Source of the DNA: Candidatus Nealsonbacteria bacterium CG07_land_8_20_14_0_80_39_13
GTDB lineage: Bacteria > Patescibacteriota > Minisyncoccia > Minisyncoccales > GCA-002779355
Direction of reading: 5' to 3'
Assembly (NCBI GenBank): GCA_002779355.1
Contig: PEWS01000027.1
Coordinates: 1-39,667, forward strand
DNA: 39,667 nt
Under the pieces are notes generated by a model. That model had not been told where the DNA came from and searched no databases. It saw only the letters and a list, made by a program, of their open reading frames with translations. Position numbers and translations under genes: made by a program. Shown one piece after another: positions 31,538 to 38,607 of this stretch (its first letter is position 1; each line of letters begins with the position of its first letter).

Positions 31538-32302
31538 ATGACCGAAGATAAAAAGAAGAATAAAATAAAAACAGCAGACGAAGCAAAGGAAGGACTTGAC
31601 TTTGAAGAATTAGTTAAGGCCGGTTTGTATTTTGGCCACAAAACTTCAAGCACTCATCCTAAGATGAAGCAATACATTGAATCGTCAAGGAATAGAATTC
31701 ATATTATTGATTTGGCGAAAACAGCGGAAAAATTAAAAGAAGTTCTTGATTTTATCGGCGATCTGGTTTCTCAAGGGAAAGAAATTCTTTTTGTCGGCAC
31801 CAAGATTCAGGTAAAAGATAAAATAAAAGAGGTGGCTGAAGAATGCCATCTTCCTTACGTCAATCAAAGATGGCTCGGAGGAACATTCACTAATTTCGAA
31901 ACAATCAAAAAGAGATTGGAATATTTCAGGAGTTTGGAAATGCAGAAGGCTTCAGGCGAGCTCCAAAAATACGTAAAGAAAGAAAGACTTAAGATTGACA
32001 GAGAAATAGAGGGGCTGAGGAAGAAATTCGGAGGCATTAAAAATTTGGAAAAACTTCCGACAGCTGTATTCGTTACAGATATGAAAGAAAACATCCTGGT
32101 TGTAAAGGAGGCCAGAGAGAAGGGGATAATAGTGATTGCTATCGCTGACACTAATGTTAACCCGGCGTTGGCGGATCATTTCATTCCCGCTAACGACGAC
32201 GCTATTTCTTCGTTAAATTATATTCTGGACAGAGTGAAGAAAGCAATTTTAGAAGCCAAACCCCAGCCAAAGGCCAGTCAGCCTCTGGCTGACAAAAAAT
32301 AA
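31538..32302 (+). CDS. rpsB: Ribosomal protein S2
   Basis: GLYFGHKTS..HPKM, ILFVGTK, VFVTD, AIADTN. Confidence 0.95.
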   Translation: MTEDKKKNKIKTADEAKEGLDFEELVKAGLYFGHKTSSTHPKMKQYIESSRNRIHIIDLAKTAEKLKEVLDFIGDLVSQGKEILFVGTKIQVKDKIKEVAEECHLPYVNQRWLGGTFTNFETIKKRLEYFRSLEMQKASGELQKYVKKERLKIDREIEGLRKKFGGIKNLEKLPTAVFVTDMKENILVVKEAREKGIIVIAIADTNVNPALADHFIPANDDAISSLNYILDRVKKAILEAKPQPKASQPLADKK

Positions 32303-33470: not shown

Positions 33471-34962
<1,492 letters not shown>

Positions 34963-35148: not shown

Positions 35149-35742
35149 ATGATTTTTTATAAAATTTTTTCTTATATATACAAAAGAGCGGCTCGGAGCA
35201 TGTGCCTGGACTGCAAGGATTTTATAAAGAATGGGGCGAAAATTCTTGATTTAGGTTGCGGTTCGGGAATAGCCGGAGATTATTTTAAAAAATTTTTTAA
35301 GGCCGAGGTTTTTGGGGTGGATGTAAAAAATAATAGGGTGGTTGATCTTCCCTTTAAAAAAATAGACGGGAAAAATCTTCCCTTTGATGATAATTCGTTT
35401 GACGCAGTTCTGATATGCTATGTTCTTCACCACGCCGAAGACCCCATCGCCGTTTTAAAAGAAGCGAGGAGGGTGGGGAAGGAAAGGATTGTTATTTACG
35501 AAGATATGGCTGACGGATTTTTTTCAAAATTATTCTGCCGTTTCCATGGATTAAGCTTTGATATTTTCTTTCAGGGATTTGTCGGCAAAAAGCGGGAAAA
35601 TCCGGAATATTTTTTTAAGGGGGAGAAAGAATGGCAGGGGATTTTTAAGGGATTGGGGCTGAAAGTTGTTTTTGAGAAAAGGATTTCGTTGCCGATTTCC
35701 CCGGTCGCCAAAAGAATTTTTATTTTAGATATCGTAAAATAA
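35149..35742 (+). CDS. Class I SAM-dependent methyltransferase
   Basis: Motif I ILDLGCGSGIAG and the post-I acidic residue; FDAVLICYVLHH. Confidence 0.8.
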   Translation: MIFYKIFSYIYKRAARSMCLDCKDFIKNGAKILDLGCGSGIAGDYFKKFFKAEVFGVDVKNNRVVDLPFKKIDGKNLPFDDNSFDAVLICYVLHHAEDPIAVLKEARRVGKERIVIYEDMADGFFSKLFCRFHGLSFDIFFQGFVGKKRENPEYFFKGEKEWQGIFKGLGLKVVFEKRISLPISPVAKRIFILDIVK

Positions 35743-35767
35743 TATGCGTTTGAAAATATAATAATAT

Positions 35768-35831
35768 GCGTGTGTAGCTTCGGCCTCGTCCAGAGGACGA
35801 TCAGCCTTTGGCTGAGGTTAGAGCGCGTCAC
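35768..35831 (+). pseudogene. Decayed duplicate of the 5' half of tRNA-Ile (nt 1-32), with 37 nt replacing 6 nt of the D loop
   Basis: GCGTGTGTAGCT + 37 nt + GTTAGAGCGCGTCAC, compared with the intact GCGCGTGTAGCT-CAGTTG-GTTAGAGCGCGTCAC at 36091-36123. Confidence 0.7.
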
Positions 35832-35839
35832 CTTTGGAT

Positions 35840-36100
35840 ATGTTCTGTGTGTATTTTTTGAAAAGCATTAAAAATGGTAAGATTTACGTAGGATTTACTT
35901 CTAAAAATATTGAGGTAAGGGTTGAAGAACATAATAGCGGTTCAAACGTTTTTACGAAAAACAATAAGCCATGGGTTTTGGTATATTATGAGATATTTAG
36001 TTGTGAAAAATGCGCTAGAGCGAGAGAGAAGTTTTTTAAATCGGGTATGGGTAAAAGATTAAAAAAGATAATTGTAGATAATTTTAATATGCGCGTGTAG
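35840..36100 (+). CDS. Small GIY-YIG nuclease family protein
   Basis: VYFLKS..GKIYVGFTSKNIEVRVEEHNSG is the GIY-YIG motif. The stop codon TAG lies inside the tRNA-Ile gene. The track start 35834 is TTG. Confidence 0.8.
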   Translation: MFCVYFLKSIKNGKIYVGFTSKNIEVRVEEHNSGSNVFTKNNKPWVLVYYEIFSCEKCARAREKFFKSGMGKRLKKIIVDNFNMRV

Positions 36101-36164
36101 CTCAGTTGGTTAGAGCGCGTCACTGATAATGACGAGGTCCGTGGTTCGAGTCCACGCTCGCGCA
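36091..36164 (+). tRNA. tRNA-Ile (anticodon GAU)
   Basis: GCGCGTG-TA-GCTC-AGTTGGTTA-GAGC-G-CGTCA-CTGATAA-TGACG-AGGTC-CGTGG-TTCGAGT-CCACG-CTCGCGC-A. Confidence 0.9.
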
Positions 36165-36243
36165 CTCTTTCACCTCGCTCTCTTGCCGTTATTCGGCAGG
36201 GGGAACGGAGTTTTGTTTTAAGGCGGTTTTTTGTTTGAAATAC

Positions 36244-36422: not shown

Positions 36423-36854
36423 AGAAGTTCCTTCTTAGTCAGGAGGATTTCAATGATTTTTCTAGATTTGAAGATGCAGAGAGCTGCATTTTCAAGGACG
36501 AAAAATTCCCGTGCGCCTTCACGGGATAGGTGTTTAAGGGAGCACGACAATAATTGTCCTCTGCCCCTATATTTCTAAGTTCGGAATTACATTATTAAAA
36601 AATTACGAATTTAGAAATGCTCCGGTCCCGCTGAAAGCGGGACGGGGGTTTAAAGAAAGAAGTCGGAAGCGCTTTCGCGACGGGGATATCTCTTTCCAGT
36701 TCTTCGCAAGAAGAACAATCTCTGTTACGAAAGCACCCCCGGCTTTTTTCAGTCCAGAGGACTATTCAGCCCAGAGAGCTTTCAAGTTGTAAATGTGTCA
36801 ATGAGGAGGTAAAATAGAAAAATAAGAACAATATTTAGAATATTTTTGAACTCT

Positions 36855-37814
36855 ATGAAAACTCGAAAGGAAGATAATATAATTTACCATGGTAGTAATT
36901 GGGTATTGGTTGAAACCCAAGATGATAATCTTTTTGATATATTGTACAAAGAAGGGTACGAGAGAGTGGTTTTGGTGAATCAATTGGGTGTGGACGGTAC
37001 ATTTGAATATATTATTGGCAAAAAAACAGAAAAAACGGATGATTTTCCGGTCGGCCCAGAAACCGAAGAAGGATCGATACTTTTCGAATTAAATAAATTA
37101 GAGATGGGTTGGGCTGGCAGTATTCAGTATGGTGGAGCGCCAATAAATACTGATGGTTCGAGATCATTGCTTACTCCGCAGATGGTCATCAGTGTTATTA
37201 ATAAAGTTGTCAATAAAAAGGATGAACAAAATTTTCTAATCGGCAAAGATCAACAATTTGAAATTGACCCGGAAAAATTATTCTCCAAAGAATCATCATG
37301 CTATCAAGTGGAAACAGATCGGCTGGGCAAAGTATCCTATGTAAACATAGATAACGCCGCTACAACTCCGCCTTTTATATCGGTGCAAAATGGCGTTAAT
37401 GATTATTTAAAGACTTATGGTTCAGTTCATCGTGGAGCTGGTACTAAATCAAAAATATCTACTGATATTTACGAACAAACACGGCAAGTCATTAAAAATT
37501 TTGTTGGGGCTCCGGAAAATTTTTATGTTCTTTTTTCCGGAAACACAACTGGAGCCATGAATAATGTAGCCTATTTTTTCTCATTTCTTGATGGAAAGGT
37601 GGCGGTATCGGAAATAGAGCATAGCTCATCTTGGTTGCCATGGATTAAAGCTGAAGGTGAAAGATCGTTGGGAGCAAATCGCGTTGATTTTGCACATGTG
37701 CATGAAACACAAGAAAAAATACAAGAAGCGGGTCGTGAAATGGTTTTGAGGTATCCACTCAATAGCGAAGGTGAGTTTGACCTCGCTGGCATTGAAGAAA
37801 TGCTAAAAAAATAA
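36855..37814 (+). CDS. Class V aminotransferase / cysteine desulfurase-like PLP enzyme, 5' fragment with ~150-aa N-terminal extension
   Basis: NIDNAATTPPF, SVHRGAG, FSGNTTGAMN, EIEHSS..PW. It ends at a TAA right after an A7 run. Confidence 0.75.
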   Translation: MKTRKEDNIIYHGSNWVLVETQDDNLFDILYKEGYERVVLVNQLGVDGTFEYIIGKKTEKTDDFPVGPETEEGSILFELNKLEMGWAGSIQYGGAPINTDGSRSLLTPQMVISVINKVVNKKDEQNFLIGKDQQFEIDPEKLFSKESSCYQVETDRLGKVSYVNIDNAATTPPFISVQNGVNDYLKTYGSVHRGAGTKSKISTDIYEQTRQVIKNFVGAPENFYVLFSGNTTGAMNNVAYFFSFLDGKVAVSEIEHSSSWLPWIKAEGERSLGANRVDFAHVHETQEKIQEAGREMVLRYPLNSEGEFDLAGIEEMLKK

Positions 37815-37833: not shown

Positions 37834-38607
37834 TTGACTGCCTCGTCAAATCTGACTGGTTATCGTCCAGATATTAAAAAAATTGGCGAACTTGTTCATA
37901 AATATGGAGCATACTATATTATCGATGCTTGCCAATTTTTGCAACACCACAAAGTTGATATGATGGAAATGGGAATAGACTTTCTGGCCGTTTTCGGACA
38001 CAAATTTTACGCGCCTTATGGTGGTGGTTTTCTTATTGGGCCAAAAAACTTTTTGGATGAATTTTTGCCGTATCAGATTGGCGGTGGCAACTTGCCCTAC
38101 ATTACAAGGGAGGGTGTGTTCTTGCGCTATAAAAATCAATTAGCGCATGATCCCGGTACACCAAACGCCGTTGGCGCTGTCTCTATGGCTATCGCGCTTA
38201 ATCAATTGAAAAAAATCGGAATCGAAAAAATTGAATCATATGAATCAAATTTAGCGAGAGAAGCATTTGACGTTTTGAAAAAAAACGAAAAGGTTCGTCT
38301 GCTTGTAAAGAGTAATCACTTAAGTACAGTAATACCTTTTATCATAGAAGGGCAGGATTCACAGATAGTTGCCGAACGCTTAAATAAAGAATTTGGAATA
38401 GGCGTTCGCGCTGGAAGTTTTTGCGTGTATGACGTGGTAAGAAATCTTTTGGGAATAGAGGACGAGCAGAAAATAATTGAGGCCGTTAATCATGGCGATA
38501 CCTCGCTTATACCAGGAATTATTCGGGCATCTTTTGCGCTTTGCAACTCAAGAAATGATGTAAAAAGATTTATTCAAGCAATAAATTGCGTTACTCAAAA
38601 TAATTAA
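37834..38607 (+). CDS. Class V aminotransferase-like PLP enzyme, 3' fragment (frame open from 37807)
   Basis: TASSNLTGY, IIDACQ, the PLP-lysine block FGHKFYAPYGGGFLIG, and VRAGSFC. Confidence 0.75.
   Translation: MTASSNLTGYRPDIKKIGELVHKYGAYYIIDACQFLQHHKVDMMEMGIDFLAVFGHKFYAPYGGGFLIGPKNFLDEFLPYQIGGGNLPYITREGVFLRYKNQLAHDPGTPNAVGAVSMAIALNQLKKIGIEKIESYESNLAREAFDVLKKNEKVRLLVKSNHLSTVIPFIIEGQDSQIVAERLNKEFGIGVRAGSFCVYDVVRNLLGIEDEQKIIEAVNHGDTSLIPGIIRASFALCNSRNDVKRFIQAINCVTQNN

Follow-up and report, generated by a model that had tools for sequence, protein, structure and literature searches.

A stand-alone GIY-YIG nuclease gene between tandem copies of part of a tRNA-Ile gene is probably one of a family of miniature homing-like elements

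We analyzed a contig of 39,667 nucleotides (nt) from Candidatus Nealsonbacteria bacterium CG07_land_8_20_14_0_80_39_13 (PEWS01000027.1, forward strand; this whole 39.7-kb stretch is called the window), in which part of the host tRNA gene is present in two tandem copies, with a gene encoding a nuclease of about 85 amino acids (aa) between them. Positions 35762-36165 are probably one copy of a large family of miniature homing-like selfish elements residing in tRNA genes of Patescibacteria and some other phyla. A sequence-only reading had already proposed a selfish nuclease gene inserted at a tRNA locus, with one intact tRNA and one dead partial copy, and this is supported by the same architecture at many tRNAs.

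Two direct repeats bracket the open reading frame (ORF), as had been noticed, each of them being one base longer than first given. The first, TAATATGCG(T/C)GTGTAGCT, is found at 35762-35779 and 36085-36102 (identity 17/18), and the second, GGTTAGAGCGCGTCAC, at 35816-35831 and 36108-36123 (16/16). Either pattern was found in none of 100 dinucleotide-preserving shuffles of the window. The downstream copies correspond to nt 1-12, together with six flanking bases, and to nt 18-33 of a tRNA-Ile(GAT) on the plus strand (36091-36165), which is intact according to ARAGORN and Rfam (70.8 bits) and carries one U6.U67 mismatch in the acceptor stem. The upstream copy, also on the plus strand, is split. 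Its left part (35762-35779) comprises a TAATAT flank and tRNA-Ile nt 1-12 (GCGTGTGTAGCT; one mismatch to the live gene), and its right part (35816-35831) the gene positions 18-33, from G18 of the D loop through the 5′ side of the anticodon stem to the first base of its loop. The similarity ends at the anticodon loop, as originally located, after its first base (C32) and not before it. A 36-nt insert (35780-35815) between GTAGCT and GGTTAGAGC takes the place of CAGTT. The double hairpin described in this D loop is present, although it had been measured as 37 nt replacing CAGTTG. The insert, which has no assigned strand, is the remnant of a palindromic cassette made of an orphan arm, TCGGCC (35780-35785), and two perfect 15-nt palindromes, TCGTCCAGAGGACGA (35786-35800) and TCAGCCTTTGGCTGA (35801-35815).

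An 8-nt leader, CTTTGGAT (35832-35839, plus strand), which relatives do not conserve, precedes the start codon. The ORF, on the same strand, extends from the ATG at 35840 to the TAG at 36098-36100, between the repeats, and has 86 codons instead of the 87 first counted. Its last three codons and the stop codon are inside the tRNA gene, and the TAG, correctly recognized as part of the intact tRNA, is formed by nt 8-10. The upstream copy is dead, as claimed: ARAGORN called no tRNA there, nor did Rfam even at E<=10 (35700-36200), and these negatives rule out a valid tRNA or a known RNA. The predicted fold of 35768-35840 is modestly stable only (z -2.6). Rfam, run on the whole window at the gathering threshold and on 35700-36200 at E<=10, returned only three tRNAs and the 16S rRNA. 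A scan for sigma-70 promoters and terminators gave no convincing signal upstream of the pseudo-copy. A group I intron in the tRNA gene was also ruled out, since the tRNA-Ile is uninterrupted (ARAGORN) and no intron family matched at E<=10 (Rfam).

The product of the ORF matches the GIY-YIG family (Pfam PF01541) with 59.8 bits for a cut-off of 22.6 (E 3.2e-16); TIGR01453 gave 20.4 bits, under its cut-off of 56. Residues Y4, Y15, G17, R26, H30, N31 and E50 are invariant in 16 relatives, showing the Tyr...Tyr-x-Gly, Arg, Glu catalytic pattern. A sequence profile search of the PDB retrieved EF2693 (1ywl, E 2.7e-10) and BH0048 (1zg2, E 6.5e-10), then SLX1, with I-TevI as a weak match. The AlphaFold2 (AF2) model, with a predicted local distance difference test score of 93.6, has the GIY-YIG topology (beta-beta-alpha-alpha-beta-alpha) and nothing else attached. 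Its best Foldseek matches were the Slx1 homologue At-HIGLE (root-mean-square deviation 1.7 Å), Slx1, BH0048 and the catalytic domain of I-TevI. Sequence and model concur in predicting a single-domain GIY-YIG protein of 86 aa, of the Slx1/UPF0213 type. The ratio of nonsynonymous to synonymous substitution rates (dN/dS) is 0.10-0.15 for this gene against its relatives and 0.10-0.20 between relatives, indicating purifying selection. The protein family is large: it counts 7736 cluster representatives (50% identity) at E<=0.001, and 1231 remain at E<=1e-10.

Searching the species genomes of GTDB and the metagenomes of JGI yielded 160 more loci, mostly from Patescibacteria (candidate phyla radiation, CPR), with a few from Bacteroidota and Ignavibacteria. 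A same-strand tRNA gene is located within 160 nt of the ORF in 117 of 171 related ORF instances (68%), versus 1.7% for random placements in the same loci. This tRNA is immediately downstream in 78 cases, upstream in 35 and on both sides in 4, never antisense (0 of 171), and more than 15 tRNA identities are used. The overlap between the ORF end and the tRNA start is exactly 9 nt in 33 cases, the stop codon being tRNA nt 8-10, and 22 nt in 10 cases, in which the D-arm sequence GG(T/C)TAG supplies the TAG.

In the layout of the window (type A), the 60-90 nt preceding the start codon contain a copy of the 5′ end of the tRNA of that same locus. Among 73 loci, this copy agrees with the first 12 nt of the local tRNA at every position (12/12) in 28 and at 11/12 in a further 10, and other tRNAs almost never match equally well, so that the match is specific. 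These matches of at least 11/12 (38/73) cover Ile, Val, Pro, Asp, Ala, Lys, His, Asn, Arg, Leu, Gln and Cys. The duplication starts 0-3 nt from the tRNA +1 in 34 of the 38 loci, the exceptions being L105 (38-nt flank) and a few others. Type B is the mirror order of intact tRNA, ORF and pseudo-copy; the downstream pseudo-copy was found in 26 of 36 loci, and the ORF reads through D-loop bases and the cassette into a pseudo-copy covering nt 18-76. At one locus (L096) the ORF start is flush with the CCA end, and at another (L034) the element unit occurs twice in tandem. The pseudo-copies decay freely. The nearest relative (77% aa identity; L001-5) precedes tRNA-Ile(TAT), downstream of ftsH, in a metagenome shared with L088, and repeats the layout of the window: GCGTGTGTAGCT, two hairpins, GGTTAGAGCA, ORF, tRNA. 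ORFs of about 70% identity occupy different tRNAs and both layouts. One further locus, L097 (2380-2500), has an ORF and downstream pseudo-copy identical to those of L096, the upstream tRNA-Val being replaced by an unrelated sequence that ends in a degenerate T-arm-like stretch; this is either a second genomic site or a misassembly.

These counts bear on one alternative, namely that the repeats arose by chance or by local slippage, or are the attachment-site remnant of an integrase-borne island, unrelated to the ORF. Although tRNA genes are common sites of integration and rearrangement, this is hardly credible. The repeats were found in 0/100 shuffles, the family-wide recurrence in dozens of unrelated genomes refutes an accident, and the repeat-bounded unit of only about 400 bp contains a sole ORF of 86 codons. 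No recombinase gene is present within or near it, the gene order being 16S rRNA (33471-34961), class I methyltransferase (35149-35742), the element and a class V aminotransferase. The ORF had no match in phage records and one in viral contigs, and the cassette had none in viral contigs; a phage or virus origin was rejected on this near-absence.

Thirteen contigs encoding the identical methyltransferase protein were compared as sister strains. All 13 carry the element, and it is polymorphic. The cassette region measures 36 nt in the window and L168-170, and L006, L088 and L171-177 have a 155-nt form. An intact ORF is found in the window, L006, L088, L172 and L174; in L168-171 and L173 it carries a 162-nt in-frame deletion between AATATTG and ATAATTG. 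In the 155-nt allele the pseudo-copy retains CAGTT, with one cassette pair after nt 12, another after nt 17, and further pairs nested within the first ones. The window allele corresponds to a 119-nt deletion between two near-identical units of this array. The D-loop bases thus appear to be replaced by a hairpin because several cassette insertions were followed by a deletion.

Across CPR lineages (L178-L185) the genes follow the conserved order methyltransferase, tRNA-Ile(GAT), tRNA-Ala(TGC). Where a lineage with a methyltransferase of 54-60% identity keeps it, the spacer measures 33-91 nt and contains no ORF, pseudo-copy or cassette. The tRNA-His locus is occupied in L027 and L104 and bare in L091. 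Relics lacking the ORF, in which a partial tRNA copy and a cassette directly precede a live tRNA, were found at tRNA-Pro (L027:495-567), tRNA-Arg (L032:700-754) and tRNA-His (L008:2922-3040). The sequence-only reading had suggested looking in related genomes for loci lacking the ORF: orthologous loci without the element exist, and the ORF decays in sister strains. Presence and absence at orthologous sites, with a cycle of gain, decay and loss, is the mark of a homing gene and is what is observed here. The name of homing endonuclease given at first sight fits this homing-like distribution but not the enzyme, a bare Slx1/UPF0213-type catalytic domain devoid of a classical DNA-binding domain.

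The same comparisons make it quite unlikely that the host itself employs the small GIY-YIG protein as an enzyme of tRNA or RNA metabolism, with the gene placed beside tRNA genes for co-expression and the duplications incidental. A host function would be in keeping with the dN/dS of 0.1-0.2, with an Slx1 homologue, HIGLE, as closest structural match, and with the fusion or linkage of prokaryotic Slx1-like domains to COG4123 and TrmH (tRNA Gm18) methyltransferases (PMC1564403). However, the adjoining tRNA varies between genomes over more than 15 identities, tandem copies occur, the ORF is deleted or lost in close relatives, and orthologous loci exist without the gene. Furthermore, co-expression predicts neither tRNA-specific pseudo-copies nor cassettes.

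The hairpin had been considered an idiosyncratic replacement of the D loop. It is instead a family-wide, clade-specific palindromic cassette cleanly inserted into the pseudo-copy. Defining the insert purely as the sequence that separates consecutive tRNA positions in the pseudo-copy gave a length of exactly 30 nt in 13 loci and of exactly 20 nt (CCTGCCTGCCGGCAGGCAGG) in 5 loci; these cassettes are clean insertions in which the target bases are not lost. The 30-nt form consists of two 15-nt palindromes, the first with a purine-rich loop (ARA) and the second with a pyrimidine-rich loop (TYT), and the pair therefore reads alike on both strands. It is inserted at 8/9, 12/13, 13/14 and mostly 17/18, the preceding base being T in 12 of 13 cases, usually within YT|GG. 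The 20-nt form is mostly found at 21/22 or 22/23 (ATA|G); it was seen once at 11/12 and once at 55/56, in the T loop. Cassettes in the T loops of pseudo-copies occur at L032, L060, L069, L083 and L100, and nested ones interrupt existing cassettes at CC|ARA, which becomes TYT|GG when read on the opposite strand. The cassette type tracks the nuclease clade: the clade of the window has 15-nt pairs, another the 20-nt palindrome, and a third CCCGCC...GGCGGG. The pseudo-copy D loop of an Ignavibacteriaceae locus (L041:1839-1968) bears a 130-nt insert of three tandem GC-rich palindromic units of about 45 nt, which is a third style of cassette.

Among 19 distinct cassettes, the stems are paired in 98.7% of the cells, and double (compensatory) changes occur in 7 of 12 pairs. 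No shuffle reached these pairing and covariation values. Since the stems contain no G.T pair (0), the constraint would act at the level of DNA, as a palindrome or hairpin, and not of an RNA. This argues against the view that the transcript of pseudo-copy and cassette is a guide or scaffold steering the nuclease to the cognate tRNA gene, or that the mature tRNA, paired to its own gene, sets the cut points. Such RNA guidance would account for a conserved hairpin scaffold between segments identical to the local target, for a protein too small to read sequence alone, and for a duplication boundary at the tRNA terminus (+1 in 34/38 loci; the ORF start at the CCA end in L096). We nevertheless regard it as very improbable: besides the missing G.U pairs, the cassette precedes the ORF on its 5′ side in one layout but falls within the 3′ end of its coding sequence in the mirror one, and the pseudo-copies are free to decay.

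A search for further double hairpins, suggested with the first description, revealed one extra site in the window. This second cassette pair, CCAGCCAAAGGCCAG and TCAGCCTCTGGCTGA (32263-32292, no assigned strand), is of the same type and occupies the last codons of rpsB, well away from tRNA and nuclease genes. It is in frame, its 30 nt making 10 codons, and its second unit is identical to units in L001, L017 and L024. It may be an independent cassette insertion into coding sequence. The possibility that the 30- or 20-nt cassettes are the real mobile units, mobilized in trans by the GIY-YIG protein as REP sequences are by RAYT, with the tRNA duplications as collateral rearrangements at D arms hit by cassettes, has more in its favor than the preceding alternatives, and we still consider it unlikely. 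The insertions are clean, with no loss of target bases, nesting occurs at the fixed point CC|ARA, sites of the type YT|GG or YT|AG are preferred, copies are found in T loops of pseudo-copies and once in rpsB away from tRNAs, and cassette type follows nuclease clade. GIY-YIG enzymes are not known as transposases, though, and only two cassette sites are visible in the 39.7 kb. Moreover, cassette mobility alone leaves unexplained the ORF between two copies of one tRNA and the start of the duplication at +1. The link between cassette and enzyme is a correlation only, type following clade.

We also considered whether the live tRNA derives its 5′ half from the element, as had been proposed from the sequence. 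At the present locus there are hints of this. The lineages of the window (tRNA-Ile at 36091-36165) and of L006 (1104-1178) are about 100% identical up to the T arm and diverge within the 3′ acceptor strand, which points to a recombination breakpoint inside the tRNA. L006 keeps tRNA-Ala after tRNA-Ile as in the conserved synteny, whereas the window does not. The U6.U67 mismatch of the live window tRNA-Ile is replaced in L006 by C2.C71. For the 3′ strand of L006, the perfectly pairing sequence would be GGGCGTG, which resembles GGGCGTA in the tRNA of the element-free L182. The GCGTGTG of the pseudo-copy and the GCGCGTG of the live 5′ strand are both common to the tRNA-Ile(TAT) element, where the stem is perfect. 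A replacement 5′ half carried by the element is thus plausible at the window locus on this sequence comparison, but it is not a general rule of the family. Acceptor-stem mismatches are not enriched (6/112 in element-adjacent tRNAs vs 6/84), which speaks against chimeric tRNAs family-wide. Two mechanisms were rejected as sole explanations: homology-driven homing from a donor at a different tRNA, since the predicted chimeric acceptor stems are not seen, and retro-transfer of a leader released by RNase P, since the predicted donor-type pseudo-copies are not seen.

For the miniature homing-like element that we favor, the following pathway can be proposed. The nuclease would break tRNA genes at conserved, structure-forming DNA of the D arm or T loop. 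Repair from an occupied locus would copy in the ORF, the conserved tRNA segments and the flanking repeats acting as homology arms. One full tRNA would be regenerated on each copying event, and the host would therefore survive. Unequal recombination between the repeats, or recombination on either side of the cassette, could generate tandem units and the two mirror layouts, and later decay and loss of the ORF would leave the relics of pseudo-copy plus cassette. We conjecture an Slx1-like, structure-specific recognition of cloverleaf-prone DNA, which would fit the tRNA-general targeting, the terminus-defined boundary and the insertion of cassettes near loops. It is also conceivable that, because the stop codon is located 3′ of the RNase P site, maturation of the tRNA would leave a non-stop mRNA, perhaps keeping the nuclease level low.

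Several observations weigh against this proposal. Known homing endonucleases (I-TevI, Seg proteins) carry a separate DNA-binding module; neither Pfam nor the AF2 model reveals one in the 86-aa protein, and its nuclease activity and specificity are predictions. None of the 13 contigs with the exact methyltransferase is an empty allele at strain level, and the element-free loci of this synteny are known solely from the lineages with a 54-60% identical methyltransferase. At nearly all loci the two tRNA copies are both of local type. A simple transfer of a donor tRNA half therefore fails for jumps to new tRNA species, the copies being local and the mismatches unenriched. The rule that insertion destroys the site is not obviously valid, because the pseudo-copy is split by the cassette yet the intact tRNA copy beside it regenerates the D-loop target. 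Purifying selection would also fit a host-beneficial gene. Finally, a large sister subclade of the protein family has no cassette, tRNA neighbor or flanking direct repeat, and is adjacent to no other structural RNA. A bolder version, doubtful in our opinion, would make nuclease gene, duplication and cassettes one mobile system, in which the 30-nt (2 x 15) and 20-nt cassettes form a new class of ultra-small insertion elements moved by a cognate Slx1-like GIY-YIG nuclease. The enzyme would then sense DNA structure and not sequence, its targets being single-stranded loops and junctions in a tRNA gene prone to form a cloverleaf, as well as loops in cassettes inserted earlier; a GIY-YIG protein would in that case serve bacteria as an insertion or transposition enzyme.

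By analogy, the closest precedent appears to be SegB of phages T4 and T6, a free-standing GIY-YIG homing endonuclease of a tRNA gene cluster that cuts inside tRNA genes at a conserved motif (PMC13096335, citing Brok-Volchanskaya 2008). SegB also drives tandem tRNA-segB repeats, in which the segB 3′ end is joined to a tRNA 5′ end (PMC13096335). Its motif RAWTSGAAC looks like the reverse complement of the T-loop sequence, a reading that is ours and not that of the paper. Both systems have a GIY-YIG nuclease gene lodged among tRNA genes and tandem tRNA-nuclease units. However, SegB comes from phages and has more than double the length, its C-terminal part extending past the catalytic domain, and it lacks a standing partial tRNA pseudo-copy, a palindromic cassette and a stop codon borrowed from the tRNA, whereas the present family is chromosomal and of the Slx1/UPF0213 type.

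Host-gene fragment exchange is described in PMC7315562. Fungal mitochondria harbor free-standing or in-frame endonuclease ORFs, such as the Allomyces atp6-ORF360, which supply a host gene with a new terminus and leave the old one behind as a pseudo-fragment. The host gene is likewise kept intact by partial duplication, with a dead fragment beside an ORF that abuts or overlaps it, but these ORFs reside at the 3′ ends of protein-coding genes and encode larger enzymes, without cassettes. In the 2006 survey of GIY-YIG proteins UPF0213 belongs to the Slx1 cluster, the methyltransferase fusions are noted and embedding in tRNA genes is not reported (PMC1564403). The stand-alone UPF0213/Slx1-like proteins EF2693 and BH0048 share fold, size and sequence family with the present protein and differ from it in that no tRNA-gene embedding is reported for them there. 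In CPR bacteria the rRNA genes carry insertion sequences with homing endonucleases, some of them GIY-YIG (PMC11270868). These concern the same organisms and place endonuclease ORFs in conserved structural RNA genes, but they interrupt rRNA genes, many as introns, and tRNA has 0 occurrences in PMC11270868.

The element resembles integrase islands in the direct repeat of part of a tRNA at the insertion and in the one functional copy that remains, but it has no recombinase, about 400 bp instead of kilobases, and a repeat of variable extent that often covers the 5′ part. Islands and prophages of that kind insert into tRNA genes by means of their integrase and carry a replacement tRNA segment. Rickettsia palindromic elements and the small dispersed repeats of cyanobacteria are, like the cassettes, short palindromic repeats. 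The REP/REPIN-RAYT system (PMC3116915) shares with the cassettes short GC-rich palindromes, spreading within genomes, nesting and in-frame occurrence in coding sequence; the cassettes differ by their 15-20 nt per hairpin and by being tied to tRNA pseudo-copies and a GIY-YIG clade, not to a Y1 transposase. A full-text literature search, with subscription-only literature outside its scope, gave no account of tRNA-embedded GIY-YIG elements or of the palindromes. The element may thus be of an already known kind, that of free-standing homing-type nuclease elements in tRNA gene regions, and the cassettes may be new in their own right.

If the homing-like interpretation is true, the element, with about 260 nt of coding sequence and no DNA-binding domain, would be among the smallest nuclease-encoding selfish elements known to us. 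Only some clades of the large nuclease family are embedded in tRNA genes; these would colonize the best-conserved genes of the streamlined CPR genomes while leaving them alive, and the reshaping of tRNA gene arrays by SegB-type nucleases would extend to cellular chromosomes. The element offers a testable system for target finding by a bare Slx1-type domain, and the cassettes may be a new kind of miniature repeat. The data also bear on the annotation of stray "GIY-YIG nuclease family protein" genes and of tRNA fragments beside tRNAs. ORF calls starting in tRNA fragments or hairpins are artefacts, as in P0002, where the pseudo-copy and cassettes yield a 20-aa N-terminal extension.

Some minor features of the locus complete this description. 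A weak third partial repeat, TAATATGCGTTTGAAAAT (TAATATGCGT; 35740-35757, plus strand), 78% identical to the reference copy, lies 22 nt upstream of the pseudo-copy, where it overlaps the stop codon of the methyltransferase gene, and is possibly an older remnant or due to chance. It is unusual for an rRNA spacer to contain, as here between the 16S rRNA and tRNA-Ile genes, a methyltransferase gene. On the other side of the element, the class V aminotransferase is split in the window into 36846-37814 and 37834-38607 (322 and 257 aa). It is split into 319 and 257 aa in L170, L171 and L174, and forms a single ORF of 583 aa in L168 and L172; the strains thus differ by a frameshift or a stop codon. 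Upstream of the methyltransferase gene in L168 (1-1746), two LAGLIDADG ORFs were found at the position expected for the 16S rRNA gene, which suggests that the 16S rRNA gene of L168 carries endonuclease-bearing insertions that are missing from the uninterrupted 16S rRNA gene of the window.

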